From Anaerolineales bacterium (GTDB taxonomy: Bacteria; Chloroflexota; Anaerolineae; Anaerolineales; Villigracilaceae), in contig DASWEH010000541.1 in assembly GCA_036394895.1 (NCBI GenBank), forward strand, positions 1 to 34,900: DNA of 34,900 nucleotides. Reading direction: 5' to 3'. Positions 19,742 through 34,900 of the stretch are shown here, in pieces; positions within the stretch are counted from its first letter, which is position 1, and the number at the start of each line of letters is the position of its first letter. Under the pieces are notes generated by a model. That model had not been told where the DNA came from, did not search any database, and saw only the letters and a program-made list of their open reading frames with translations. A program made the translations under genes and the position numbers.

Positions 19742-22366
19742 ATGCCAACTCTTCCGACAATCGAGAATCAGCTAAAAGAAGCTAGTCAACTGACGAATGC
19801 CGTTTGGGCGGCGCTGGTGGAGCGTGAGGCGGGCAAATGGCGCGTGCTTGCCAATTATCGTCTTGCCAAAAAGACTCATCCGGCGCTGGTAAAGTTTCTT
19901 AGCAAGACGGAGGTAGATTCATGGCTAAGCGGGGCGCTCAGTGGCGGCCAAAGCCGTTCAGCCTCCCTCCCTGAGTCCAGCAAGCTGGAGGCAGGCAGGT
20001 TGTTTGCATTTCCTCTTCTTGGAGGGTCGCGTGTGGTTCTAGTGGGGGCAAGTCAATTAACCAACGAATCACAACGCTTATGGCGCCTGGTCATTTCCGC
20101 AATGCAGATGGAAGTTCCCTCTGTTGATTTTTCTCCTTCCTCTTCCGTTGCGGCATCGTTACTGGTGCCCGACCTGGATTCCGAAAGTCCCTACGATATG
20201 CCGCGCGCATTGGGTCGCGCGCTTGCCTCTTTTGTGCGTCTTGTTTCTGTGCAAGGAGGCTGGTTGGCCGTACGTCGTGGTGACACGCTCGAGATCCATG
20301 CGCAATGGAATGCGCCTGCCTGTGAAAATCTCATCCTTTCTATGGATGGGAATACAATTTTGCGCCGCTTGAGTCGCAACCTTACGTCAATGGTTGTCCA
20401 CCGCGACAATCCACTGTGGGCCGAGATTCCACATAAAGGCTTGAAATCGAGTACGAAGTTATGGATCTGCGTACCGCTAATCATCGGGCAACGCCTGATT
20501 GGTGTACTGGCTTTATGGCGGACGGCTGCTTTTAAGAACGATGAGTGGAATCGCTTGATGGACATGACGACTCAAATCGCACCAGCCATTGAAACAATTA
20601 TTACGTTCGCAGAAATGGCAGGTCATTTGCGTCGTCTAGCCATATTGAATGATTTCGCTCTCACTGTTTCTTCGGGCCGCAATCTTGACCAAATTGCGCG
20701 CCACATGTTTGCATTGCTCTCGCGTGCGTTTGGCACTGAACTCATCATCCTTTATTTGCTTTCCTCCGATAATCGTCTGTTGAGTGAATATCGTACCAGT
20801 GAAGGCAATATGATTGCATCCGTACAGAATGCGCAGAAGCACAGAATTGCTGCCTTGCTTAACAGCAACCAATTAATGCGATTGGGCGAAATTGCGGCCG
20901 ATATTCAATTACCGTTGTATAACAAAGTCTTATCAGGCTTGTACGTCCCTTTGCGTTTCCGGGGGCAGACCATTGGGATACTCTGTGTCGAAAGTTTAAT
21001 AAGCGACGCATTTAATCTGTATGATGAAAATTTGATGGTTGTGATTGCCAGCCACCTTGCCAGTCTTGCCGATTACACACGTTTGCGTGAAGAAGCCGAA
21101 GGCCGCGCCCGTAACCTTGGGCTTATCCATGAAGTCGTTCAACAGGTCATTGGACTTACCAATCCTCATGAGGTAGCTGAGATCACCTCGGAACTGCTGG
21201 CCCGGTATTTTGCCTATGAACTTTGTTCGGTCTTCATCGCCGATGAACGGGGAGACTTAACGATTGGTGGCTTTGGCGGTACGAGTCAAAACGTTGTGAA
21301 ACGTGCCATAAAATCCTTTGAGTACCCGCTCAGCGGTGGGATCACAGGTTATGTTTTTGAGACTGGTGAGAGTATCGTGGTAAACGATGTATTGCAGGAT
21401 AGCCGTTATCGTTCCATCAAGGGCTGGCAGGCAGGTTCTGAGATGTGTGTGGCGATCCGCGAGGGAGAAAAAATTCTGGGAATCGTGGATGTGGAAAGTA
21501 GCTCACGCAATGCCTTCACCCACAACGATTTCATCGCTATGGAATCTCTTGCTGGGATTCTTGCCACTGTGATTACCAGTGCCGATCAATATCAGAGACT
21601 GCAGATCATGATCAGTCAATTAAGTTCCACACAGGTAGAGTTGCAGGCCCGTATGGAGGCGCAACGTTCTGCAGAGAATCGTCTTGTGCAGGCTGCAAAA
21701 CTTGCGGCGGTGGGCGAAATGGCCGCAGGCATTGCGCACGAGTTGAATAACCCGTTGACTTCCGTCACTGGCTTTGCAGAATTAGCTCTGGCTGACATTC
21801 CAAAAGATAGTGAAACCCGCAAAGATTTGGAGATCGTTATGCGTGAGGCGGTCCGGGCAAGAGATGTAGTGCGCCGTCTTCTCGATTTTGCGCGGCAAGG
21901 CGAAAGCGCCCGCGTGCGCGCCTCATTGAATGAAGTGGTCGAGGATGTCGTTGCGTTGAGTCGTCACCTTATTCGTACCAGTGGCGTGACATTAAAGCTT
22001 GAGCTTGAAAAAAATATTCCCTGGATTTTGGTGGACGTAAATCAGATGAAACAAGTATTGCTCAATCTGATTCATAATGCTTTGCAGTCCATGCCGTCTG
22101 GCGGTGAAATGAGCATTGCAACAGAGTCAGCCTCTCGCGATGGGCGAGATTGGATCATCGTTTCTGTTTGTGATACAGGTGTGGGAATCCCGAGATTGGA
22201 TCAGGCCCGTATCTTTGAACCGTTTTATACGACAAAAGGCAATCAAGGCGGAACGGGCTTAGGACTCTCTGTCACCTATGGAATTATCACAGATCATGGC
22301 GGGCAAATAGAGGTGGAAAGCCAGCCGGGTAGTGGATCAAAGTTCACAGTGTGGTTGCCTCAATAG
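19742..22366 (+). CDS. Soluble multi-GAF sensor histidine kinase (NtrB-type HisKA/HATPase)
   Basis: Three GAF repeats (VPLIIGQRLIGVL, VPLRFRGQTIGIL, SEMCVAI..GEKILGIVDVES) plus a degenerate N-terminal one; GEMAAGIAHELNNP, NLIHNA, DTGVGI, FYTTK, GTGLGL. Confidence 0.93.
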   Translation: MPTLPTIENQLKEASQLTNAVWAALVEREAGKWRVLANYRLAKKTHPALVKFLSKTEVDSWLSGALSGGQSRSASLPESSKLEAGRLFAFPLLGGSRVVLVGASQLTNESQRLWRLVISAMQMEVPSVDFSPSSSVAASLLVPDLDSESPYDMPRALGRALASFVRLVSVQGGWLAVRRGDTLEIHAQWNAPACENLILSMDGNTILRRLSRNLTSMVVHRDNPLWAEIPHKGLKSSTKLWICVPLIIGQRLIGVLALWRTAAFKNDEWNRLMDMTTQIAPAIETIITFAEMAGHLRRLAILNDFALTVSSGRNLDQIARHMFALLSRAFGTELIILYLLSSDNRLLSEYRTSEGNMIASVQNAQKHRIAALLNSNQLMRLGEIAADIQLPLYNKVLSGLYVPLRFRGQTIGILCVESLISDAFNLYDENLMVVIASHLASLADYTRLREEAEGRARNLGLIHEVVQQVIGLTNPHEVAEITSELLARYFAYELCSVFIADERGDLTIGGFGGTSQNVVKRAIKSFEYPLSGGITGYVFETGESIVVNDVLQDSRYRSIKGWQAGSEMCVAIREGEKILGIVDVESSSRNAFTHNDFIAMESLAGILATVITSADQYQRLQIMISQLSSTQVELQARMEAQRSAENRLVQAAKLAAVGEMAAGIAHELNNPLTSVTGFAELALADIPKDSETRKDLEIVMREAVRARDVVRRLLDFARQGESARVRASLNEVVEDVVALSRHLIRTSGVTLKLELEKNIPWILVDVNQMKQVLLNLIHNALQSMPSGGEMSIATESASRDGRDWIIVSVCDTGVGIPRLDQARIFEPFYTTKGNQGGTGLGLSVTYGIITDHGGQIEVESQPGSGSKFTVWLPQ

Positions 22367-22378
22367 CGGTCGGAAACT

Positions 22379-23971
22379 ATGGAATCAATTTCAGTCCTCG
22401 TTGTAGATGACGAACCTGGCATAGCGCTCCTATGCGACCGTATCTTGAGCCGTGCCGGCTATGATGTTATCTCTGAAACAAATCCGCGCACAGCCATAGA
22501 AGATCTCCAACAAAAGCATTTTGACCTGCTTTTGGTTGATATTCGAATGCCCGAAGTAGATGGCTTTGATGTAATCTCCCGAGCCCAAATGGTTCAGCCT
22601 GATATTGCTGTCCTGGTCATGACTGGTTTTGGCACAGTCGAAACGGCCATCCGCGCGTTGCGTCAGGGCGTGGACGGTTTGCTGTTGAAACCGTTCAAGC
22701 AAAGTGAAGAACTTCTCCAAGCGGTGCGACAGGCATTGATGGATAACCAGCGCAAGCGTGATACAGCGCGCGTTTCGGCGCTGCGTCCATTATTCAATGT
22801 CACCGAAACACTCTTTGCCGAAACAAACCGGGATCGCTTGCTGGATCTCATTGTCACAGCCATATGTGATCATTTGAGTTGTTCGAATGTTGCCTACTAT
22901 CACGTTGAGGACGGGAAGGTTACTGTCGTCGCGCAACGCGGGAAAGTCCTTCAGGTGGACGCATCCAATTTTGCCGCGCAGCTTGTGAGCCGCGTGGATG
23001 CAGATGGGGATCCAATTGTAGTCAATGCAACAGGACCTGGTGAGGAGGATGCGCAATCGCTTCTTTCGACACTTCGGCTTGGTACAGCAATTCTGATACC
23101 AGTTGCACGCTCCAACCTGCATAGCGTATTTTTTGCTGCGCGGGACGTTGGCGTCGCAGAACGTCCTTTCCGAGGTGCGGATCTGGAGATGTTTTTCGTT
23201 CTGGCCCGCCAAGCTGTGGTTGCGATGGAAAACGCAAGCTTATACGCGGATTTGCGTGCCTATGTTCGCCGTGTAGAAGATTCGCAGCAAGCTTTGCTTC
23301 GAGCAGAAAAAATGGCGGCGGCTGGACGCTTAACCGCATCTATTGCGCATGAAGTCAACAATCCATTGCAGTCGGTTCAAAATTGTTTGCATCTGGCGGG
23401 TCGTGAAGATTTGCCGCCTGAGAAGCGTCAAGAATATTTTGATCTTGCAAGGAATGAACTTGAGCGGTTAATGAAAACAACGCAACGCATGTTAGATTTT
23501 TATCGTCCCGGCTCAGCCAAAGTTGAGCAGGTGGATATTTTGGAACTACTGCAACATGTTCTCAGCTTAACGGCTCAGCAGCTGGGTCAGCGTCATATTG
23601 AAGTTCAGACGGACTTACCACAATCACTCCCCGAAATTTATGCAGTTAGCAGCCAAATCCAACAAATATTTTTCAATTTGATCTTGAATGCACTGGACGC
23701 GATGCCTGCTGGTGGTAAATTGGAAATTCGGGCCCGCGAACGCGACCGTGGTGTTGAAATGACTTTTCAAGATACGGGTCCTGGCATTCCTGAAAGCAAA
23801 CGTAACGATATCTTTGAGCCATTTTTTAGTACAAAAGAAGGCGGCACGGGGCTTGGCTTGACTGTGAGTTACAATATTGTTACCGCACACGGTGGTACTC
23901 TTGATCTTGTCAATGGAAACAAGCCTGGTGCCTGCTTTCGATTATTTTTGCCTATGGGAGATAAACAATGA
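22379..23971 (+). CDS. REC-GAF-histidine kinase (N-terminal receiver hybrid)
   Basis: VLVVDDE...VDIRMP...MTG...LLKP, GAF ending MENASLY, SIAHEVNNP, DTGPGI, GTGLGL. Confidence 0.93.
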   Translation: MESISVLVVDDEPGIALLCDRILSRAGYDVISETNPRTAIEDLQQKHFDLLLVDIRMPEVDGFDVISRAQMVQPDIAVLVMTGFGTVETAIRALRQGVDGLLLKPFKQSEELLQAVRQALMDNQRKRDTARVSALRPLFNVTETLFAETNRDRLLDLIVTAICDHLSCSNVAYYHVEDGKVTVVAQRGKVLQVDASNFAAQLVSRVDADGDPIVVNATGPGEEDAQSLLSTLRLGTAILIPVARSNLHSVFFAARDVGVAERPFRGADLEMFFVLARQAVVAMENASLYADLRAYVRRVEDSQQALLRAEKMAAAGRLTASIAHEVNNPLQSVQNCLHLAGREDLPPEKRQEYFDLARNELERLMKTTQRMLDFYRPGSAKVEQVDILELLQHVLSLTAQQLGQRHIEVQTDLPQSLPEIYAVSSQIQQIFFNLILNALDAMPAGGKLEIRARERDRGVEMTFQDTGPGIPESKRNDIFEPFFSTKEGGTGLGLTVSYNIVTAHGGTLDLVNGNKPGACFRLFLPMGDKQ

Positions 23972-24702
23972 AGTCGCATATTCTTGTTGTTGATGATGAG
24001 CCTGTTGCGCGCCAATCACTGACCGATATCCTTCGGCTAGAGGGTTACACAGTGAACTCCGTGCCAAATGGACAGGCTGCGGTAGAGTATGTTCGCACGC
24101 ATCCTGTCGAATTAATCATTGTTGACCTGCGCATGCCGGGTATGGATGGGCTGGAGGTTGTTCAGGTGGTTAACCAGATCTCGCCCGAAACGGAGGTCAT
24201 TCTGCTAACAGCATTTGGCTCAACCGAATCTGCCGTTCAGGCATTACGCTTACGCATTCATGACTATTTGCTTAAGCCAGCTCCGCCAACCCAGGTAATG
24301 AATAGCGTTAAGAAGGGATTAGCTCGGCGTGAAGCACGTTTGAAGATGCGAGGCGGCCCTTCGACTTCAGATATTGATGAGGGGATGGCAGAGTTCTCAT
24401 TAAAAGATGGCACACATATTGACCTTTCCCGTAGGCAAGTCCGCAAAAAGGAGCAAATCATCCATTTGACTCCTGCGGAGGGGCGTCTGTTGCGCGTGCT
24501 GATCGAAAATCCGGGACGTGTCTATTCACATCGTGAATTGGTTTTGCTTGTTCAGGGATACGATACGTCTCAACGAGAGGCCCCCGAAATTTTGCGTCCG
24601 CTGGTAAGCAGGTTACGACATAAGTTGGAATCGTTCCCCTCTCTTTCTGATCGGATTATCAGTGTACGTGGTACAGGATATTTATACGAGTCTGAAAAGT
24701 AG
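23968..24702 (+). CDS. DNA-binding response regulator, OmpR/PhoB-type winged helix
   Basis: ILVVDDE, VDLRMP, LTA, YLLKP; C-terminal LTPAE..LL..L, VSRLRHKL, SVRGTGY; ATGA overlap. Confidence 0.93.
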   Translation: MKSHILVVDDEPVARQSLTDILRLEGYTVNSVPNGQAAVEYVRTHPVELIIVDLRMPGMDGLEVVQVVNQISPETEVILLTAFGSTESAVQALRLRIHDYLLKPAPPTQVMNSVKKGLARREARLKMRGGPSTSDIDEGMAEFSLKDGTHIDLSRRQVRKKEQIIHLTPAEGRLLRVLIENPGRVYSHRELVLLVQGYDTSQREAPEILRPLVSRLRHKLESFPSLSDRIISVRGTGYLYESEK

Positions 24703-24737: not shown

Positions 24738-24770
24738 ATAAACCCACCGTGAAGAATTTGGTGGGTTTAT
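24738..24770. terminator. Probable bidirectional terminator between the response regulator and EamA genes
   Basis: 11-bp stem ATAAACCCACC/GGTGGGTTTAT between convergent stops. Confidence 0.7.
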
Positions 24771-25711
24771 TCATGTTTATAAAGGTCTGCTGGAAAATCA
24801 GGTGGCTGCAACCAGCTTAGTAATCCATGGGGATGTGCGGGCTTGGACGGCGGCCTTTCGAACCAGGCCAATAAAAGGCTGATCGCTAATCCAGCGGTGC
24901 CAAGCCATTGGAGCGAAGTCAAACTTTCGCCCAAAAGCAGGTGACTGAACGAAATTGCCACAAGTAATTCACCAAGTCCAAACAAGGCGGTCTGCATGCC
25001 TCCAATATGTTTTACACCTAGGAAGAGCAGTAATCTCGAAAAGAAAGTAACTGTAGTGAGCCCCAGCACGGGAAGCCAGGGCGCATTTCCTGTGGGAAGA
25101 CTTCGATCAAAAATCAGATAGGCTGGTACCACAACCAAACTCATGGCCAGCAAGGTATAGACTGTCACGGTGGGTGCAGGGATATCGTATAATACGCGCT
25201 GATTGATGGGGAGGTGGAGTGCATACAAAGCAGCCGCGATAAGCATAAAGATTACGCCCCATACGTCAAGCTTTCCTGTTTCTACTCTCGTGAGCAGAAA
25301 TGTAGATAGAATAGCAATGACAATTCGAAACCCCGTTAGTCTTGAATGAGATTGTTTATCAAGTTGAAGCCAGAGCGCGACAAAGAAGGGATAGAGTGCA
25401 TAAAGCATTTGCGCAATGCTGGCATTCAATTTACTTAAGCCAACATAGTAAAAGATCGAACCAATCCCGTTAACTGTACCTGCCATCAAACAACCTAGAA
25501 GACCCACAGGATAAATGTAAAGGCTTCGACGTCTAAACACTGCCATAATCAGCACGAGAAGAAGGGCAGCCATGCTTGTGCGCAATGCCACCACCGCCAG
25601 AGGTGAAAATTTGCCCACTCCCATAGCGGCCTTGCCAAAGACGGGGGCCAAGCCAAGAAAGAATGCAGAGATCACCGCGGCGTTGATCCCCGGGTTTCGG
25701 CCAATTCGCAT
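24767..25711 (-). CDS. EamA/DMT family transporter
   Basis: About 10 TM helices in two repeats; AVISAFFLGLAPVFGK, VVALR, YYVGL..LNASIA.ML..LYP, LLGE.LT.LQWLG. Confidence 0.88.
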   Translation of the reverse strand: MRIGRNPGINAAVISAFFLGLAPVFGKAAMGVGKFSPLAVVALRTSMAALLLVLIMAVFRRRSLYIYPVGLLGCLMAGTVNGIGSIFYYVGLSKLNASIAQMLYALYPFFVALWLQLDKQSHSRLTGFRIVIAILSTFLLTRVETGKLDVWGVIFMLIAAALYALHLPINQRVLYDIPAPTVTVYTLLAMSLVVVPAYLIFDRSLPTGNAPWLPVLGLTTVTFFSRLLLFLGVKHIGGMQTALFGLGELLVAISFSHLLLGESLTSLQWLGTAGLAISLLLAWFERPPSKPAHPHGLLSWLQPPDFPADLYKHE

Positions 25712-25808: not shown

Positions 25809-27481
25809 TTATCGTATAAGGGACCGAACTTCTTCCAGAAACTCATCGTTCAAGAAATCACCTTTCAACATGAGGGATTGAATTTGCCCCTGCAATCGGC
25901 TTTTCTCATCCACGGTCAACTCTTTTGCAGTGGCAACAATGACGGGGATGTTGGCCGTTTCTGGTTGACTGCGTAAAGAATCCAGTACCGCAAAGCCGTC
26001 GACTTCAGGCATCATCAGATCAAGGATTACCAAATCAGGCCGTTCTCTTGTGACGAGCTCAATTGCCTCACGCCCATTGGCTGCTTCTGAGATTTCAAAA
26101 TCTCCCTGTGATTGGAGAATGCGGCGGATGAGGCGACGCGCCTCGGATGTATCATCAACCACCACCACGCGCGGGAAGCGGTTTGGTGTCACATTGTTGA
26201 GGGCGGAAAGCAGGCCTTCCTGGGGCGTTGGTGTAAGTTCTTGTCTTTGAAGATCCACATCCCGAGTCCAGCCCTCGCCAAAGAGGAATTGTTCGGCAGG
26301 CAACGTATGTCCTGTGCAATTGACGACAACTGTGTCGGTTGATTTGATGATCCCAGCCCGTACCAGCTTGAAAAGCCCAGCAAAGGCGACAGCCGCGGCC
26401 GGCTCTGCTGAAATACCCTCCATTTTAGCGAGAACATGCATGGCACGGAAAGCGTCTTCATCGCTGACGCTTTCGAATACGCCATGTGTTTCATTGACTT
26501 GCTTGCGCAGCATAGTATATGTCCTGCCCGGATCGCCTGTTGCAAGGGTTTCAATACGAGTTTGGGGCGAAAGAACAGGTTCAGCCTTTTCGAGTCCTTT
26601 TTTCCAGCTTTCAACCATTGGGGCACAGCCTTCGACTTGTATCGGCGCCATGGCAGGAATATGATCGATCAGTCCAAGCTGCTGTAGCTCCCGAAAACCT
26701 TTATATACCCCCAAGGGTCCCATACCGCCACTGATCGCCTGGACATACCAATCGGGTGTGCGCCATTTGGGGGCTTCATGGGTCGAACCCGGAGGTACAC
26801 CTTGTTGCATGGTTAATTGTTCCGCAATTTCAAAGGCAATCGTTTTCATGGCTTCAACGGCGGTGACAGTCCGCGCACCCATATCCTGGTAAAGCCCGCG
26901 TTGCCGCGCAAATTCGGCTGCCACCTGCTTGGCCTGATCATAAGAGCCTGTGATCTTTACCACCTGGCTGCCGTACAGAGCGATTTCACGCATCTTGACC
27001 CCGGGGACAAGACTGGTGACGAAAGCCCAGAGCTTGATCCCAGCCCGAGCCGCATACGCGGAAAGTGAAATGGCAACATTGCCTGTGGAAGCGGCAACCA
27101 TTTCAGTCACGCCGCCTTCCTTGAGTGCCGCGATCGTAACGGCGGCCTGCCTATCTTTGAACGAAGATGTTGGTCCCTGCCGTTCATCCTTAATGTAAAG
27201 ATTTGGCAGTCCAAGCATCATACCCAGATTCGCGGCTTGAATAAGTGGCGTACCCCTTCGCCCAGCCTCAATGTGGGGTTGGGATTATGAATGGGCAGCA
27301 GCTCTTGGTAACGCCATAAATCAAAAGGCCGATTTTTGATTTCTGAAGGGAACGTACTTGCGACCTCCGTCATGTCGTATTCTGCTGCTCGCCATTGACT
27401 GTTACATTGGGGACAATGCATGGAACTGGGCATGAATGGCGCGGCGTGGCCACAGTCCAAACACCTGATTACAAATGACAT
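25809..27481 (-). CDS. Threonine-synthase-like fold-type II PLP enzyme fused to a C-terminal receiver domain; 1-base frameshift at 27253-27256
   Basis: N-part (ORF 27218-27520; ATG 27481 with SD AGGA) has CxxC..CxxC, LWRY..LLP, LGEG; continues in the other frame as GTPLIQAANLG, LYIKDE..GPTSSFKDR (PLP Lys), ASTGN, KTIAFEIAEQL, EGISAEP, TGH; then VVVVDD..ILDLMMPEVDG..VATA..LKG. Confidence 0.85.
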
Positions 27482-27509
27482 AGAGTATCCTGTTAGAAGC
27501 AGACTGGCT

Positions 27510-30500
27510 TCATGCGCCAAGTCTCTTCAATGCACTTTCGATGTTTTTGATTAATTGATCTTCGTTGAGTGAACCTTTGGTGATCAGTCGCTGCCCAAAA
27601 TCGTTCAATTGTTGCTGCTGTTCGTTTGTCAAGCCACCACCACTGACGACCAGTACGGGAATATCGCGTAAAACGGAGTTTTCGCGAAGTTTCTCAAGTA
27701 TGGTGAAACCATCCATTTCCGGCATAAAAAGATCCAGGATGATGGCGTGCGGTGTTTTTTTGATGATCGTTTCCCATCCTTTACGGCCACCTTCCGCAAG
27801 GATTGGCTTATATTGGCCGTGCTGATTTAAAATCTTCTCAATCAAGCGCAGATCGTTGGGATCGTCATCAATCACTAATACTTCATGAATCGTACCATCC
27901 TTATTCAAACGATCAAGCGCACACACTAAATCCTCTTCGAGAATGGGTTTGACAAGATAATCAGCTGCACCGAGGCTGAACCCTTTATCCGCCTGTTCCA
28001 TGATGGAGCAAATGATAACAGGGTAATCTCGTGTCGCTGGGTCAGATTTAAGATCCGTGAGAACCGACCAACCATCCCTATTTGGCATCATGATATCGAG
28101 TGTGATGGCGTAGGGCTTAATCTTCAAGACCTGTTCTTTGGCTTTTGCAGGATCAGTTAGCGGTATAACGTAATACCCTTGTGGGTTGAGGTAGCGTTCA
28201 TATAACCCAATTACTTGAGGGTCATCATCAATTGCCAGGACTACTTTCTTACCTTCAGGGATCTCCTGTTCTGGCTGATAGTAGAGAGGTAGAGTAAACC
28301 AAAACGTTGAACCTGTGCCAGCCCCACTATGAATCCCAATGCGTCCACCGTGCAGCTGCACAAGATTTGCACAGATGGAAAGTCCAAGGCCCGAGCCACC
28401 GCTCTTGCGTGTTGCTGATCCATCCACTTGTGAAAAGGCCTGGAATAGCTTCTTCTGATCTTCAATGGAAATGCCAGGACCGGTGTCGATGACGTTGATC
28501 AGGGCTTCCATTTTCCCTGTCGGACTCCTTTGGACAATCGCCTCCACAGTAATGGAACCTTCGTCAGTGAACTTGGATGCATTCGAAATGAGATTAAGCA
28601 ATACTTGTCGAACGCGCATCATATCGCCGCGCACGGAAGGCATGTTTGCTGGAATGCGCTGAATCAGCTGGATCGGTTTTTCTTTTACCAGTCCTTTGGC
28701 AGTGGACATCACACTGGTTGCCATTTCAGAGAGATGGACTTCCTCAAAGTTAAGTTCCATCTTGCCTGCTTCAATACGCGCGAGATCAAGAATATCGTTG
28801 ATCAATCCCAACAGATGTTGACCCGAGTTATAAATGGCAGTCAGATCCTGCTGCTGCATATCGCTGACGGGACCATCAATGCCTTTCAGAATAACGCGTG
28901 AGAAACCAATGATGGAGTTCAACGGCGTTCGGAGTTCATGACTCATATTCGCCAGGAATTGACTCTTTAACTGATCTACTTCGCGGAGGTCTTTAATCAA
29001 TTGTTGAGAGAGTTCGTAGGAGCGGGCATTATCAATGGCAACTGCCACCTGATCTGCCAGTGACTGCAACACGGAAAGATCATCTTTGGTGAACGCGTAG
29101 GCTTGTGTGGACTGGATGTCAATCACACCGACGCTACGTGAGCCAATTCGAAGAGGAATGGCGACTTCAGCGCGGGTATCCAGCAGGAAGGGATTAGGAA
29201 CGTAGAGAGGCTCAATGTCCGTGTCATTGACCAGCCTTGGCTCAATGCTTTCGGCCACCTTGCCAATAATGGAATTGGAACCCACAACTACTGCATACCT
29301 TTGCGCTTTCATTTTCTCGCCCGCCTCGCCAATGGCTTCACGGAGAACCACGTTGAATCCTGTCTCTTCAATAATATAGATTGCAGCGTAGTAAAAGCCG
29401 AATCGTTCGCTGATCAGGTTGACGGTGCGGGTAAAGATTGTGTTGAGGTCGAGTGTTGAGGTAACCAGACGCCCAATTTCTGAGGAAGCAGCAAGATAAT
29501 CATTTCGCCGCTTCAAAATCTCCTCTGATAACTTTCGCTCGGTAATATCTTGATGGACAGCCAGAAAACCGATGGTTTTTCCACTTTCATCAAGAATAGG
29601 ACTATTCGTTCCTTCAATAGGAATTAGAGTGCCGTCCTTCGTTTTGTTTGTAATTTCCCCTGAAACCGTTCCGCCCGAAAGTAAAGTTTCCCAAAAATGC
29701 TTGTATTGTTCATCAGGTATAAGACCTGATTTGAAGATGCGCGGAGTCTTTCCGATTGCTTCTTCAGGCGAAAAACCATAGACCTTTTCAAAAGCAGGGT
29801 TGGCATACTGAATAACGCCTTCCAAGTCAGTAATAAAAACAGCGTTATCAGAACGGTCAATGCCAAGTTTGAATTTTTGGATCTCACGTTCCGCAAGGAA
29901 ACGTTCAATAGCAGATGAGACCTGCGTCGCGATGATGGAAAGAATCTCTTTATGTTGTTCCGTAATGCGGGTTCTAGGGTCATAAGACTGGATGGCGATA
30001 ACACCTGAAACAACTTGTTTTGATCGCAGCGGAACACCAAGCCAGTCTACGCTCCTGGCACCATCGCTTGCTACTTCACCAGCAGCTTCGAGATCAGCAA
30101 AAATTTCTGGAGTGGTACGTAACGGCTTGCCCGTGCGAATCACATAGCTTGTAAGCCCTCTACCAAGCTTTCGCGGGGACCAATCTTCATCAATTTCATC
30201 TAAATGATATGGGAAGGTGATCCAGTTGGTTTTCGGATCATGTTGTGCAATATAGAGATTGTTTACGGGTAGAAGTGGCTTAATAGCCTCATGAATGGAT
30301 TGAAATAATTCATCCATGGTTTTGGAGGAAAGCACGCTTTCAGAGATTTGCGTGATAGCAATTTGTGTAAGTTCATTAAATTTACGGTCCGTAATATCAC
30401 GCGCGACCCAGAACACCTGATCTTCATTTAATTTCGAGACATTTGCATCGAACCATAAGTTATTTCCGGCAATATTAAGCGGGTATTCAATTCTTATTGT

Positions 30501-32123
30501 CTCATTACTGCTCAACGCCTCATGAATTGTCTCCATGAATTGGCTGTGCAATTCTAGCGGTAAAATCTCTTTTATATACCTACCTATCATTTCATCGGGA
30601 GGCCGTATAAGTAAGGACGGATTGGTTGGAGCAATTCGAACGTAGCGACCCTCTTTGTCATACACGATAATCACATCATTCATAGATGCAAATAACGCGC
30701 GAAGTTCAGCCTCAGATTTTTGTGTCTCTTGGAAAAGGCTGGCATTTTGGACAGCAATCGCCGCCTGACGAGCCAGACTGGTCAAGAATTCCAACTCTGC
30801 CGTAGTAAATTCTTTGCCCTGACCTGCGCGCCAAACAGACATCAGCCCGGTTACCTTATCCGCAGATAAGATAGGAACTCCCATGATATGCTCAAAGGGT
30901 CTTTCAACTGTTCCCTGGATAGTAATTGCCTCGGGCTGATTGTTGGCATCATTTACTGTCTGACCCGCTTTTTGCAAAATGATTTTCCCAAGAATGCCCT
31001 GGCCGGTATGAATTGCATCGTTCTTGATCTCTTCTGCATCTGCACCAATGACCGAAATCGCGCGCCACTCATCCATGCCATCTGGGGCTTGCAAATATAC
31101 AGCACTGCTTTCTACCTGAAACAAGTCTCTTGCGTAGGTTGCGATTTTGGCAAGTACCGTTTCCAAATCCAATGTGACCGAGATCTCGCGCCCGACCTCT
31201 GCAAGGATAGTGGTCTCCTGAGCGCGGCGTTGGGCCTCTTGGAATAGGCGCGCATTTTCAATCGCGATGGCAGCTTGACTAGCAATGGTTGTTAAAATAT
31301 CGCGATTGTGCTCGTTATAAAGATTTGGTCTCTGAACGCTTTGTACCGAGATCAACCCGAGCACACGCTCCCCGATCATGAGTGGCACGCCCAACCAGGA
31401 TTGAGAAGGAGTCTCATCCTCATTCAACGCAATAAATTCAATGCCAAGTGACTCCATATGTTTTAGTACATCATTTGGAGCAAATACAGCTCTTTTGTTG
31501 CGAATGATGTAATCTGAAAAGCCGCGGTTTCCTAATTTGCTGGGTGACAGTTGAATCCGCTGGCCCTCTTCAAAGGCTAATGGATAACTTTTTTCTTCCT
31601 TTTTCTGATCGTAGAGGGCAACGAAAAAATTACTGGTGTCCATCAGGCGGCTGGTGTAACGATAAACAACCTCCGCGATTGCTAGCGTGTCCAACTTCGT
31701 CGACAATTCTCGACCCATTTCATTGAGCACACTCAATTCTTCTGCGCGAGTTTGGGTTTCCTGAAATAACCTTGCATTTTCCAGTGCCAATGAAAGCTGA
31801 TCTGCTACCTGTTTTACAAGTAGTTGTTCGTCCTGACTCCAGGTGCGCTGCTCTGACTCATCCAATACCTGTAAAGTTGCCCAGGTGTTTTGTCCCGCCT
31901 GGAATGCAAGTGACATCGCTGATTCCTGTTGTGAAACCTGACTTGCCATTTCAACAGGCTGTCTGACCCTCTTGATTGGATTTATCTCAGAATGTTGAAT
32001 GGACTTCTCTTCTGAGGCGGCGCGTTTAGGCGACACCGGCTTGAATTCCGCAGGCATCTGCTCAGGTTTTGCATCTTCAAATAAATGCTTAAGCCGCTTG
32101 TCGATTGGCTTCTTCTTTGGCAT
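27510..32123 (-). CDS. Soluble hybrid histidine kinase: half-GAF, GAF, GAF, PAS, GAF, PAS, GAF, HisKA, HATPase, REC, REC
   Basis: Repeated ...A(I/L/V)xNA.LFQE GAF ends; PAS ends RDITDRK and QDITERK; FLANMSHELRTPLN, NLISNASKFT, DTGPGI, GSGLGL; receivers LDIMMP and LDLFMP. Confidence 0.95.
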   Translation of the reverse strand: MPKKKPIDKRLKHLFEDAKPEQMPAEFKPVSPKRAASEEKSIQHSEINPIKRVRQPVEMASQVSQQESAMSLAFQAGQNTWATLQVLDESEQRTWSQDEQLLVKQVADQLSLALENARLFQETQTRAEELSVLNEMGRELSTKLDTLAIAEVVYRYTSRLMDTSNFFVALYDQKKEEKSYPLAFEEGQRIQLSPSKLGNRGFSDYIIRNKRAVFAPNDVLKHMESLGIEFIALNEDETPSQSWLGVPLMIGERVLGLISVQSVQRPNLYNEHNRDILTTIASQAAIAIENARLFQEAQRRAQETTILAEVGREISVTLDLETVLAKIATYARDLFQVESSAVYLQAPDGMDEWRAISVIGADAEEIKNDAIHTGQGILGKIILQKAGQTVNDANNQPEAITIQGTVERPFEHIMGVPILSADKVTGLMSVWRAGQGKEFTTAELEFLTSLARQAAIAVQNASLFQETQKSEAELRALFASMNDVIIVYDKEGRYVRIAPTNPSLLIRPPDEMIGRYIKEILPLELHSQFMETIHEALSSNETIRIEYPLNIAGNNLWFDANVSKLNEDQVFWVARDITDRKFNELTQIAITQISESVLSSKTMDELFQSIHEAIKPLLPVNNLYIAQHDPKTNWITFPYHLDEIDEDWSPRKLGRGLTSYVIRTGKPLRTTPEIFADLEAAGEVASDGARSVDWLGVPLRSKQVVSGVIAIQSYDPRTRITEQHKEILSIIATQVSSAIERFLAEREIQKFKLGIDRSDNAVFITDLEGVIQYANPAFEKVYGFSPEEAIGKTPRIFKSGLIPDEQYKHFWETLLSGGTVSGEITNKTKDGTLIPIEGTNSPILDESGKTIGFLAVHQDITERKLSEEILKRRNDYLAASSEIGRLVTSTLDLNTIFTRTVNLISERFGFYYAAIYIIEETGFNVVLREAIGEAGEKMKAQRYAVVVGSNSIIGKVAESIEPRLVNDTDIEPLYVPNPFLLDTRAEVAIPLRIGSRSVGVIDIQSTQAYAFTKDDLSVLQSLADQVAVAIDNARSYELSQQLIKDLREVDQLKSQFLANMSHELRTPLNSIIGFSRVILKGIDGPVSDMQQQDLTAIYNSGQHLLGLINDILDLARIEAGKMELNFEEVHLSEMATSVMSTAKGLVKEKPIQLIQRIPANMPSVRGDMMRVRQVLLNLISNASKFTDEGSITVEAIVQRSPTGKMEALINVIDTGPGISIEDQKKLFQAFSQVDGSATRKSGGSGLGLSICANLVQLHGGRIGIHSGAGTGSTFWFTLPLYYQPEQEIPEGKKVVLAIDDDPQVIGLYERYLNPQGYYVIPLTDPAKAKEQVLKIKPYAITLDIMMPNRDGWSVLTDLKSDPATRDYPVIICSIMEQADKGFSLGAADYLVKPILEEDLVCALDRLNKDGTIHEVLVIDDDPNDLRLIEKILNQHGQYKPILAEGGRKGWETIIKKTPHAIILDLFMPEMDGFTILEKLRENSVLRDIPVLVVSGGGLTNEQQQQLNDFGQRLITKGSLNEDQLIKNIESALKRLGA

Positions 32124-32874
32124 ATTCCATTAACTCCTGAGCAAGGACACGGTACTGTTGCGAGCCGCGGCTGGTAGGCTTGTATTGTGTAATCGGTACA
32201 CCTGCAATCGGGCTTTCTCGAAGTTTTGTATCAATCTCGATCACAGTTGTGAAGACACCCTGCCCAAATGTAGCCTGTAATTGTTCGAAAATATTGCGGT
32301 GCGTGCGGTTTCGTCGATCCAGTAAAGTGACAAGGATTCGGTATGCAAGATTCGGATTACTCTCCTGTCGAACACGGCGAATGATGCCCATCATGTTCCT
32401 AAGAGCATACGCAGAGAAATACTCAGCCTGAGTCGGGATAATGAGCAGATCTGCTGCAGAGAGAGCATTAAGTGTGATTGCGCCCAAAGCAGGAGGACAG
32501 TCAAGCAGGATATATTCATAGGGAAGAGGAGCCGCCTGCAGGGCGGTGCGGAGCGTCGCCATATAATGGCTTCGCATCGGCAGGAATTGTTCTGCGTTCT
32601 CGATCCGTGAATTGGAGGGGACAAGATCCAGATTTTTCACCTCGGTTCGGCGAATAGCGCTTTTGATAGCAACATTGTCAATCAACACGCTTGAAGAATT
32701 AAACTCTACCTCTGCCGCTTCAAGACCCAGGGCAAGGCTCAAGTTTGCCTGCGGATCAAGATCAACCAGTAAAACTCGATGATCCAACTCGGCCAGCGCG
32801 GCACCTAAAGATAAAGTAGAGGTTGTCTTTGCAACCCCACCCTTTTCATTTGACATTGCAATTGTAAATGCCAT
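32089..32874 (-). CDS. Orphan Soj/ParA-family ATPase
   Basis: NEKGGVAKTT (deviant Walker A), VDLDPQANL, LDCPP.LG, IPTQAEYF, L.ESP..G; ATG 32874 with SD AGAGGA; 3' end overlaps the kinase start by 35 bp. Confidence 0.92.
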   Translation of the reverse strand: MAFTIAMSNEKGGVAKTTSTLSLGAALAELDHRVLLVDLDPQANLSLALGLEAAEVEFNSSSVLIDNVAIKSAIRRTEVKNLDLVPSNSRIENAEQFLPMRSHYMATLRTALQAAPLPYEYILLDCPPALGAITLNALSAADLLIIPTQAEYFSAYALRNMMGIIRRVRQESNPNLAYRILVTLLDRRNRTHRNIFEQLQATFGQGVFTTVIEIDTKLRESPIAGVPITQYKPTSRGSQQYRVLAQELMEYAKEEANRQAA

Positions 32875-32901
32875 TTTTCCTCTTGTTTTATCCATTGAAA
32901 A

Positions 32902-34626
32902 TTACTCGGTGCCTTTTACTGACTGCGGAATGACTTCCACTTTGCTGGCACCCAGGGCTTTGCGCAATTCTTCCATTGCGGTTTGAATCATAGATTGTGG
33001 ATCGTTTACACTTCGGATCTTGCCGGTAATATCTGACACCAATCGTTCGCGTTCTGCGCGTCGGGTTGTTTCTTCGAAAAGACGCGCATTTTCCGCGGAA
33101 AGCGCCACCCGTTCGGCAACAGCTTTGATGAGATCGATCTGATCCTGGTTAAGCGCCGCTGTCGATGGGGATTGAACCACCAGTGAGCCAATTGTTTCAC
33201 CGCGTAACACGATTGGTACTACAACTTGGCTAGCTTCCCTTTGATTGGCTCTACTTTTACTTAGTTCTGTCAAATCAAGCCGCTCATGGAGAGGTGACGA
33301 ACCGGCGATGCCGTAGCGATAGCCAAGTAATTTGGTTTCCACAGGCATATGAAGCCAAGCCTCACGGGTCAATTGGCGGCTAATTGATTCTGCGTCTGAG
33401 AGTGCCCGGCGTGTTTCATCAAACAGACGAGCATTCTCAATGGCTAAACTCACTTGATCGGCAAGCAAGCTAAGCATTTGGATGTCTTCCTCGGTAAACG
33501 CTCCTTTTTCTGTGCTTTGCACATCTAAGGCACCAACAATAAGCTTTCCGCTCTTTAGCGGTAGAGCCATTTCAGAATGTGTATCTGGAAGCTCGGGATT
33601 GTCAAAAAACACTGCATCTTCGCCCACATCCATCGCAATACGTGGATTGCCGGTTAATGTTACGTTGCCTACAATGCCTTGCTCCCCCACGCGTAATCGG
33701 TGTCTGCGTTCCAGCATCTGCTTCCCACCCTCACTATTTGCAGCGCTTAATACAGCATATTCATTTGTGTCATCCAAAAGAAAGATACCAACATGGTAGA
33801 AACCAAACCTGCTGCTAATCACGATTGTGATGTGAGGCAATAATTCCTGAAGATCTCGAATGGAAGTAATGGCTTGTGTCACCTGAGTTAGAGCTTCAAA
33901 TTGCGCGGCCCGGCGGTGTATCTGTGAATTGGCTTGGTCCAATTCCTGATTTCGATTCGCAAGTTCATGAGTGCGATCTTCTACGCGTAGTTCCAGCTCG
34001 TCGCGTAGCTCGGTCAGTTGCTGATTGCTTACTCTCAATTCAGTTGCAGTTATATTCGATCTTTTCAGAGCGCCCTGCAGGCTGCTGATAATCAGATAAA
34101 GAAATATTGAGCCGAAAATAAATAATACTGTGCCTTCGATTGCCACTTCAACAGCGGGACCTGGCACATAATTAATGATTCCAATATTTTCTGCATATGC
34201 CAGTCCGAATCCGGAAGCTACGCTGAGGATAGTAAATCCGATAGCGGGTTTCCATCCTAGCAACAATCCAGCCATCAGTATGACTACAAAGTAACTGGTG
34301 AATGCTGTCCCTCTAACGCCACTTCCACTGAGTGCAATCATCGTGCTCGCTAGCCAGATGGTTGTGACATGCAGATACGCGGCAAACCGTACTTGGCCTG
34401 CCTTCATCAAAAACCAAACAACGGCAAGGATAGTGACGATCGCGGCTAGTATTAAGTTATCAATACCAAAAGGTTCGGCACCAGTTCCTGTGCGAACAAT
34501 AATAAAGAGCAACAGAATTGGAATATTACTCAAGACAATTATATTGAGGTATGACGCAGAACGCGTTTTTTCCTCGTCGTCAGTGAAGGTGGGAGCCGCA
34601 AAGTATTTCAAGAATGAATTTGACAT
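32902..34626 (-). CDS. Membrane GAF-domain receptor-like protein without an enzymatic output domain
   Basis: About 6 N-terminal TM helices, signalling-helix-like LELRVEDRTHEL, full GAF (FYHVGIFL...NPELPDTHSEMALPL...ENARLF), then a C-half plus N-half GAF module. Confidence 0.88.
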   Translation of the reverse strand: MSNSFLKYFAAPTFTDDEEKTRSASYLNIIVLSNIPILLLFIIVRTGTGAEPFGIDNLILAAIVTILAVVWFLMKAGQVRFAAYLHVTTIWLASTMIALSGSGVRGTAFTSYFVVILMAGLLLGWKPAIGFTILSVASGFGLAYAENIGIINYVPGPAVEVAIEGTVLFIFGSIFLYLIISSLQGALKRSNITATELRVSNQQLTELRDELELRVEDRTHELANRNQELDQANSQIHRRAAQFEALTQVTQAITSIRDLQELLPHITIVISSRFGFYHVGIFLLDDTNEYAVLSAANSEGGKQMLERRHRLRVGEQGIVGNVTLTGNPRIAMDVGEDAVFFDNPELPDTHSEMALPLKSGKLIVGALDVQSTEKGAFTEEDIQMLSLLADQVSLAIENARLFDETRRALSDAESISRQLTREAWLHMPVETKLLGYRYGIAGSSPLHERLDLTELSKSRANQREASQVVVPIVLRGETIGSLVVQSPSTAALNQDQIDLIKAVAERVALSAENARLFEETTRRAERERLVSDITGKIRSVNDPQSMIQTAMEELRKALGASKVEVIPQSVKGTE

Positions 34627-34641
34627 GGTCCTATACTCCGG

Positions 34642-34899
34642 CTACTTGGAACCGTTACCCTTCCCGCTTTGAAACTGGATCACAACTTCTGAACCTGGCA
34701 GGACTCGACCCAGTTCCTCAACCGCAGTCTGCAAGACGTTGCGCATATTGACGGATGCGCCGATCTTGCCAGAGATATCTGCTGTGAGGCGGTCAATCTC
34801 TGCGCGGCGTTGCGTCGTTCGCAAGAGCGTCGCTGACTCCAATGCGAGCGACAGGCGGTCAGCAACTGCCCTGGCGATATCCACTTCATCCGGATCCCA
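34642..34899 (-). CDS. C-terminus of another GAF-domain protein (5' part outside the window), paralogous tail to 32902-34626
   Basis: Frame open to the window edge: WDPDEVDIARAVADRLSLALESATLLRTTQRRAEIDRLTADISGKIGASVNMRNVLQTAVEELGRVLPGSEVVIQF. Confidence 0.85.
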   Translation of the reverse strand, partial: WDPDEVDIARAVADRLSLALESATLLRTTQRRAEIDRLTADISGKIGASVNMRNVLQTAVEELGRVLPGSEVVIQFQSGKGNGSK

Positions 34900-34900
34900 G

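Follow-up and report, generated by a model that had tools for sequence, protein, structure and literature searches.

Coevolution and operon architecture point to a probable gene-ordered chain of split-GAF sensors, predicted to end on a hybrid histidine kinase, in Anaerolineae

We analyzed a stretch of DNA of 34,900 nucleotides from an Anaerolineales bacterium (assembly GCA_036394895.1, here G000), which comprises the whole of contig DASWEH010000541.1 (here C541) and is called the window in the following. It carries, on the minus strand, the 3' end of an operon conserved in Anaerolineae, in which genes for membrane receptors are followed by a ParA-family gene and by the gene of a soluble hybrid histidine kinase. 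The receptors end with an incomplete GAF domain, the acceptor, and with a spare GAF piece, the donor tail. The kinase begins with an acceptor only. This split-GAF feature is real and conserved. The reading we prefer, with a probability of about 0.72, is that the sensors assemble by fold complementation into one gene-ordered chain which ends on the kinase and passes signals to it. In such a chain, the spare piece of each sensor would complete the incomplete GAF of the protein encoded by the next gene.

Split GAF modules and coupling between neighboring receptors

The receptors consist of a variable membrane or sensor part, an intact GAF domain (GAF-A), a tryptophan-bearing link helix (Trp-link) with a beta-hairpin, strands 4-5, helix 5, and the tail with helix 1, helix 2 and strand 1, numbered as is usual for the GAF fold. 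Their sensor inputs are varied (dCache-like with HAMP, several membrane types) and no output domain was found besides the split-GAF module. A sequence-only reading of the window had described the receptor of 574 amino acids (aa) as ending with a GAF C-half and an N-half, the gene upstream as ending in the same way and the kinase as beginning with a C-half alone. These elements were recovered at their places on the minus strand (Table 1), the C-half of the receptor at 33082-33225. It is, however, more than a half, since the conserved Trp-bearing helix and the hairpin precede it (33289-33423). In tail-ending proteins, the end of the last GAF follows that of the previous one after 50-90 residues if the Trp-link is present, compared to 110-130 residues for whole GAFs. 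The acceptor, about 45 residues shorter than a whole GAF, therefore appears to be devoid of about helix 2 and strand 1. Judged by this spacing, the parts missing from the acceptor are about those carried by the donor tail.

Structure models are consistent with this description. In the AlphaFold2 model of receptor residues 396-569 (predicted local distance difference test, pLDDT, 90.8) the elements follow one another as H-E-E-H-E-E-long H-H (H, helix; E, strand), helix 5 continues without a break into the tail (H99-143), whose strand has no pairing partner. The model of kinase residues 57-130 (pLDDT 85.5) shows three strands and one helix, as expected for an acceptor only. With its short acceptor, the unpaired tail strand and this kinase head, the split module does not form a complete GAF fold in one chain. 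The likeness of acceptor and tail to GAF domains was seen in Pfam, in PDB sequence matches and in GAF clusters of the ESM Atlas at 0.97-0.99. A fold search with the receptor model gave middling scores (best Z 5.9), which covered mainly model residues 70-166 and thus have little bearing on the Trp-link. No family specific to the receptors was found in NCBIfam. All receptor tails are homologous to one another. GAF-A is more conserved than the split module (52% vs. 43% mean column identity; nine paralogues, with vs. without GAF-A), which suggests a shared cytoplasmic ligand or a second interface. Chance can be dismissed as the origin of the tail architecture, because all 10 tail-ending open reading frames (ORFs) of G000 are located within one operon (contigs C541 and C498) and 854 such ORFs were counted in the fetched loci, overlapping genomes still included.

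For inter-protein coevolution, a check proposed by the sequence-only reading, we applied Gaussian direct-coupling analysis to acceptors (93 columns) and tails (48 columns) in six pairings and in shuffled sets. The sets were cleared of identical pairs, and pairing was restricted to genes separated by less than 450 base pairs (bp). The pairing of the tail of gene i with the acceptor of gene i+1 (550 pairs, effective number Meff 327) was the only one with strong couplings. With C and W denoting acceptor positions and T tail positions, the strongest were C39-T19 (z 12.5), C40-T31 (9.0), W37-T36 (8.0), C31-T7 (6.9), C17-T35 (5.4) and C18-T43 (5.1). The maximum z of the controls was 4.3 for the same gene (730 pairs), 5.0 for the previous gene (505), 4.4 for two genes downstream (377), 4.6 for two upstream (334), 4.6 for three downstream (257) and 5.7 for shuffled pairs. 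Pairings within one protein, with the previous gene or with genes two or three positions away were rejected for lack of coupling. The previous-gene control shares the ancestry of the next-gene set, since the same gene pairs are used.

The couplings outline a GAF fold, in which tail helix 1 is parallel to acceptor helix 5 (C39-T19, C35-T11, C31-T7, C28-T7) and helix 2 contacts both helix 5 and strand 5 (C40-T31, C17-T35). Strands 1 and 5 are antiparallel to each other (C18-T43, C19-T41, C16-T45), and the acceptor hairpin touches helix 2 at its end (W37-T36). In the intact GAF-A control, C40-T31 ranks highest among the couplings between N- and C-terminal halves. Of the 550 training pairs, 467 come from the window's group and 83 from other families; the top couplings recur in these two separate halves of the data.

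For a held-out test, 11 contacts were fixed beforehand and 20 stretches from 18 new genomes were used. The mean z of these contacts was 1.25 in next-gene pairs (61 pairs), a value reached by 0.00015 of random sets, compared to -0.27, -0.34 and -0.10 in the controls. With tables trained on the earlier next-gene pairs, the true upstream tail came out on top for 38 of 55 acceptors, compared to 8.9 expected by chance and to 11 and 5 with control tables. No same-gene coupling was detected, either in the 730 pairs or in 83 held-out ones. An arginine at acceptor position C39 together with Arg, Trp or Lys at tail position T19 occurs in only 2 of 550 next-gene pairs, where 84 are expected, but in 138 of 730 pairs in cis. 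Self-pairing is disfavored, because this combination is avoided by neighbors yet common within one protein.

As the coupling is confined to the next-gene pairing and is replicated in held-out genomes, tail i likely pairs with acceptor i+1, so that the chain would be ordered by gene. Ordered trans-complementation is well supported computationally. The fold complementation in trans suggested by the sequence-only reading thus gains support from inter-gene coevolution, from operon architecture and, weakly, from complex prediction. That reading had also left a choice between swapped dimers and head-to-tail chains capped by the kinase. Next-gene coevolution favors the head-to-tail chain; swapped homodimers and self-chains do not agree with the missing same-gene coupling and the frequent Arg/Arg combination in cis.

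The kinase step, the proposed chain and its alternatives

The kinase head of the window carries Q109 and the last tail R538. Gln and Arg are found at these positions in 116 of 116 ParA-flanked pairs, which are mostly close orthologues and not independent events. With tables from all next-gene pairs, the last tail scored first as partner of the kinase in 87 of 87 cases, and it represents a distinct conserved class. Across other families, the state of the kinase mostly tracks that of the last tail, with Arg/Thr in G334 and G031, His/Ala in G345 and G382 and Gln/Arg in G207, G214, G218, G223 and G208. Complex prediction of kinase head and last tail gave a score of 0.47, compared to 0.00 for the best of three controls; the runs agree in at least 94% of contacts and the partner pLDDT is at least 74. 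In the calibration, 116 of 157 solved pairs and 2 of 215 mismatched ones came up to the mark, and scores of 0.60 or under are weak, since only 18 of the 157 solved pairs are found there together with both passing mismatches. We consider it likely that the last tail docks on the kinase head, less firmly than is the case for the receptor-receptor step. With regard to the earlier idea that a receptor tail completes the half-GAF of the kinase, the data point to the tail of the last receptor and do not support docking of any tail at will.

In the proposed assembly, tail helix 1 would run parallel to acceptor helix 5, helix 2 would pack on helix 5 and strand 5, and strand 1 would close the sheet where a strand is missing. 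Since helix 5 passes directly into tail helix 1 of the same protein, the rebuilt GAFs would line up as an unbroken poly-GAF spine, prolonging the GAF array of the kinase. In 666 of 669 cases, C39 and T19 lie on one helix at a distance of 32 residues, and each link would shift the spine by 32 residues, or about 48 Å. Between neighbors, the stretch from the last membrane helix (located by a crude hydropathy scan) to the end of the acceptor differs in length by a median of 4 residues (450 steps, standard deviation 34). Because this step is 4 and not 32 residues, the spine cannot climb from the membrane, and a staircase model with a chain running away from the membrane was ruled out. The spine probably runs along the membrane with the sensors as side branches.

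The order of the sensors would be set by a small residue code, possibly aided by putative co-translational capture, and ParA would position the assembly via an RL..LF peptide. Signals would flow through the chain to the kinase, which would phosphorylate its own receivers, the single-domain receiver of the operon and a pyridoxal phosphate (PLP) enzyme fused to a receiver. Output through this enzyme and an exporter would be a candidate route. The most elaborate form of the model is a linear filament encoded by gene order and made of up to about 20 membrane sensors, branched at multi-acceptor proteins, positioned by ParA, assembled co-translationally and extending the GAF spine of one kinase parallel to the membrane. 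Operon order would then represent distance from the kinase, perhaps also weight, and new sensors would be added by gene insertion. For this full picture the odds seem to us a little below even.

Several observations weigh against the chain. In addition to the relatedness of the 116 kinase pairs, partner scoring for the kinase failed when it was trained on the 83 other-family pairs alone (last tail first in 0 of 87), the kinase junction of G298 is Arg/Arg, and the pass in complex prediction may reflect likeness to solved intact GAFs. Among receptors, cross-family partner prediction was modest (15 of 69, chance 8.2). In the held-out set, three of the 11 preset contacts have a negative z and two Arg/Arg next-gene pairs occur (6.8 expected). 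An automatic reference of 25 GAF-A contacts barely separates the pairings (mean z of 0.44 for next-gene, 0.21 for cis and 0.32 for two-upstream pairs) and was discarded as too noisy a discriminator. Kinases with 2-3 acceptors are present in G202, G286, G015 and G228, where donors and acceptors are not exactly balanced in number. Moreover, coevolution is a sign of pairwise contact; it does not imply simultaneous occupancy of both sensor ends or travel of a signal along the chain.

Four other explanations were considered. The chain might be a scaffold which clusters or positions sensors and kinase, with no signal along the GAF spine or only one from the nearest sensor. All evidence is structural or genomic, the intact GAF and PAS domains of the kinase could be its main inputs, and a 10-step relay over some 50 nm is long. 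A mere scaffold fits poorly, however, with sensors that have varied inputs and no output domain other than the split-GAF module, and with a continuous spine whose helix leads into the GAF array of the kinase; we consider it unlikely. It is still harder to accept a star, in which any sensor tail plugs into the kinase head and the sensors compete or alternate. The homology of all tails and the kinases with 2-3 acceptors would suit it, and close cousins of the true partner can pass the complex prediction, by which specificity is not established. Yet it would leave the next-gene-specific coupling and the donor-only first gene unexplained and the acceptor of each sensor unfilled, and the last tail, a class of its own, scores best for the kinase.

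Homodimers are common among GAF tandems, and both pieces are present in one protein, which might speak for self-completion of each sensor, be it in cis or through a swapped homodimer or homopolymer, with the tail as structural cap. The absence of coupling in same-gene pairs of both data sets argues against this, as do the unpaired tail strand of the monomer model and the existence of donor-only and acceptor-only proteins. The Arg/Arg combination avoided by neighbors is also the one found within the last receptor of the window (R506/R538), and self-complementation appears very improbable. Finally, the coupling could have arisen without physical contact, as a by-product of shared ancestry or of fixed paralogue classes that keep to their operon positions. 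Window-family operons do keep position classes and most training pairs stem from the window's group, but the previous-gene pairing shows nothing with the same gene pairs. The couplings fall on GAF-internal contacts and are replicated in other families as well as in held-out genomes whose sensor sets differ, so that this explanation retains hardly any probability.

Operon plan, gene content and distribution

In all 13 operons of the window's family, a first sensor is followed by 4-11 sensors with acceptor and tail, by ParA and by the kinase. The first sensor has whole GAFs and a tail but no acceptor (donor-only), and the kinase has an acceptor but no tail. Donors and acceptors are equal in number in all 13; this is not a separate observation, since it follows from the two end genes. 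A receiver gene precedes the first sensor wherever the fetched stretch extended to it. Across Anaerolineae, the operons comprise a donor-only first sensor, 4-20 further sensors (up to about 20), ParA and the hybrid kinase. Other families follow a like logic with ParA placed elsewhere and an internal kinase acceptor (G207, G214, G218, G223, G334 and G031). In some multi-acceptor operons (G202, G286, G015 and G228), 2-3 acceptors are found on kinases or soluble members, along with several donor-only genes. Kinases with 2-3 tandem acceptors, or soluble members with two acceptors and one tail, were noted in G002:C330 (L044:12808-16794), G015:C528, G202:C1, G286:C5 and G228:C7. At such proteins, several chains might branch.

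A separate membrane GAF-kinase gene is located between the receiver gene and the first sensor in G207, G214, G223, G283, G286, G290, G295, G298, G324 and G202. The locus G196:C1:219708-231121 (L285) contains one donor-only protein of 1937 aa, a kinase and a PLP-receiver gene and is possibly a minimal version of the system.

The features of the window are listed in Table 1. Its end overlaps with contig C498 over 824 bp (window 34077-34900 = L001:1-824). Because this overlap is only 92.7% identical, C498 is a strain variant of the window locus, and assembly G000 contains a strain mixture. C498 carries eight receptor genes in tandem, the last of which is the full version of the gene cut at the window end (L001:566-2272, 568 aa). 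Together with the 574-aa gene, the G000 operon has at least nine receptors, then the ParA-family gene and the kinase. The seven further receptor genes upstream on C498 and the ParA-like gene between receptor and kinase were absent from the sequence-only reading.

Table 1. Location of the operon features within the window.
Feature	Position	Strand	Description
Second-to-last receptor, 3' end	34642..34899	-	End of acceptor helix and donor tail (tail at about 34645-34815)
Last receptor of the array, 574 aa	32902..34626	-	Membrane region, coiled coil, intact GAF, acceptor GAF, donor tail; without output domain
GAF-A, intact family-specific GAF of last receptor	33430..33915	-	Pfam GAF_2 at residues 257-397, and alignment
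Acceptor of last receptor	33082..33423	-	Trp-link helix, beta-hairpin, strands 4-5, helix 5; without helix 2 and strand 1; key residue R506
Donor tail of last receptor	32905..33069	-	GAF helix 1, helix 2, strand 1; key residue R538; predicted partner: kinase head
ParA/MinD-family ATPase	32089..32895	-	Pfam AAA_31 (E 1e-48); deviant Walker A KGGVAKTT; overlaps kinase start by 35 bp
Basic N-terminal peptide of kinase with RL..LF motif	32073..32123	-	Candidate ParA-binding peptide
Kinase head, acceptor only	about 31767..31934	-	Short strand, strands 4-5, helix 5; key residue Q109
Soluble hybrid histidine kinase, 1537 aa	27510..32123	-	Head, intact GAFs, two PAS, HisKA, HATPase, two receiver domains; membrane helix not predicted
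Threonine-synthase-like PLP enzyme fused to receiver domain	25809..27520	-	Candidate output; split by frameshift near 27252
EamA/DMT-like transporter, operon end	24767..25711	-	TIGR00950 (E 1e-14, below its cut-off); candidate exporter of the PLP enzyme's product

By its Pfam domains HisKA, HATPase_c and Response_reg and its H box and N/G1/F/G2 boxes, the kinase belongs to the class I hybrid histidine kinases. The motifs SHELRTP, NLISNA, DTGPGI and GSGLGL and the Asp of both receivers were read from the sequence. The receiver-fused PLP enzyme gene comes directly after the kinase in 98 of 100 loci showing a next gene. In the window it is interrupted by a frameshift (27243-27281). This is likely an assembly error, since homologues are single ORFs of 557-559 aa and contigs of run X1, a possible source, and of run X5 have one extra base after 27252. 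The transporter occupies an equivalent position in G042 and G019. Adjoining the operon end, a convergent three-gene unit (GAF kinase, receiver-GAF kinase, OmpR-type regulator) is located on the plus strand at 19742-24702, and a like unit is present at the same place in G042 (L032:7064-11977); it is possibly a downstream partner of the operon. Very long poly-GAF proteins are encoded elsewhere in G000 on contigs C5, C496, C661, C144 and C189 (e.g., C5:1-5394 with at least eight GAF repeats).

In some families ParA is directly followed by the kinase gene, in others by the gene of the first sensor, and in G202 and G286 by that of a middle sensor. The first 70 residues encoded by this following gene contain the motif [RK]L..[LIV]F in 120 of 139 loci, compared to 9 of 703 receptors overall. 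The peptide moves with ParA, because the motif starts whichever gene comes after it. A similar peptide follows ParA in 6 of 6 printed cases of the held-out loci. In several families the L..LF core is kept and the peptide is acidic, not basic. As in orphan ParA positioning, a ParA-family ATPase with deviant Walker A lies beside candidate cargo genes. Short N-terminal peptides are described as ParA/MinD activators in the accessible text of PMC7993993, with PomX, Spo0J/ParB, SopB and MinE as examples. The system resembles these, as far as they are presented there, in the short basic N-terminal peptide on an unrelated protein, the low-complexity Pro/Ala-rich linker after it and the adjoining ParA-family gene. 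It differs in the acidic peptides mentioned above, and activation is putative here. From this pattern, the RL..LF peptide is a candidate for binding ParA, which would thereby position the assembly.

The genome searches covered samples of the window's own lineage at phylum, class and order level. In the phylum sample, all 13 genomes of the window's family gave a best E of 1e-35 or lower; 37 of 151 genomes of the class sample match at 1e-20 and 34 of 121 of the order sample at 1e-35. Full arrays were found in two genomes labeled only as the same phylum (G002 and G015). Phylum-level matches at E 1e-10 to 1e-20 were not counted as members, those in G079 and G052 being ordinary internal GAF junctions of kinases, and no terminal tail was found in any of the 11 short loci L021-L031. 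Named relatives are mostly labeled Anaerolineales, Anaerolineae or Chloroflexota, and 2 of 80 records bear labels of other phyla. These are the operon loci L095 and L109 in Syntrophothermus and Bacteroidota records, which may be mislabeled or mixed bins. Anaerolineae are common in soils, sediments and wastewater sludge.

Comparison with known systems

Chemosensory arrays represent the textbook wiring of many sensors to one bacterial kinase. Some of them are positioned by ParA-like proteins, as known for PpfA-TlpT in Rhodobacter and ParC-ParP in Vibrio. Like the arrays formed by methyl-accepting chemotaxis proteins (MCP), CheW and CheA, the system described here has many output-less membrane sensors with varied inputs and one conserved signaling end. 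As with the ParA-positioned arrays, a single operon also encodes one histidine kinase along with a single-domain receiver and a ParA-like ATPase. The N-terminus of TlpT is extended by a basic segment, according to the accessible part of PMC7993993. In contrast to these arrays, the kinase is a HisKA-HATPase-REC-REC hybrid and not CheA, the coupling unit would be a split GAF, and the order would be linear and gene-colinear instead of a lattice. In five genomes tested (completeness 85% for G000 and 99-100% for the others), the MCP signaling domain PF00015 (control 8 of 14), CheW (PF01584) and flagellin were not found in any, and no MCP match was obtained on the 574-aa protein. As all three are missing from every one of them, these five genomes are unlikely to use a flagellar output. 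A chemoreceptor-like array seen by tomography in Chloroflexales was set aside as a physical correlate of the chain, as it belongs to another group and a predicted chemotaxis system is cited for it in the part of PMC7332563 available to us.

No description of the system was found in the full-text literature, most subscription papers and supplements being beyond the reach of the search. If correct, a split-GAF ordered sensor chain would be a second, unrelated architecture linking many sensors to one kinase, in genomes where MCP, CheW and flagellin were not found, and a new class of bacterial signal integrator. A common signaling fold would serve as a split, self-ordering connector with a readable specificity code. 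It would also offer orthogonal plug-socket parts for building ordered protein chains, and it makes sharp predictions, such as a 10 x 10 binding matrix for G000.

At the domain level, the acceptor end plus tail resembles an ordinary GAF-to-GAF junction in the tandem GAFs of cyanobacteriochrome and phytochrome kinases and of phosphodiesterases (PDB 8w26, 6oap, 2lb5, 2xss, 3mf0). Sequence matches include 8w26 (E 4e-25) and 6oap (E 1e-21), and the fold match to 2xss reached Z 5.7 (root-mean-square deviation 1.5, 53 aligned). In those proteins each GAF is whole and in one chain, whereas here the chain stops after strand 1 and the remainder of the domain is on the protein of the next gene.

In chaperone-usher pili, an incomplete subunit fold is completed by the neighbor, donor-acceptor specificity orders the subunits, and the ends are donor-only or acceptor-only. 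Coevolution and architecture suggest the same traits for the sensors, namely an incomplete fold, a specific neighbor and donor-only or acceptor-only ends. In the pili, a single strand is donated to an immunoglobulin (Ig) fold, the fiber is extracellular, and chaperone and usher are needed. Here, two helices and a strand would be donated to a GAF fold in cytoplasmic parts of signaling proteins, which are not Ig-like pilins. The docking domains of polyketide synthases and non-ribosomal peptide synthetases are short terminal helices joining enzymes through paralogous interfaces, with a small residue code and next-gene pairing that is often gene-colinear. The proposed chain would share this residue code and next-gene pairing with them, and differ in that a whole domain is rebuilt across two sensors.

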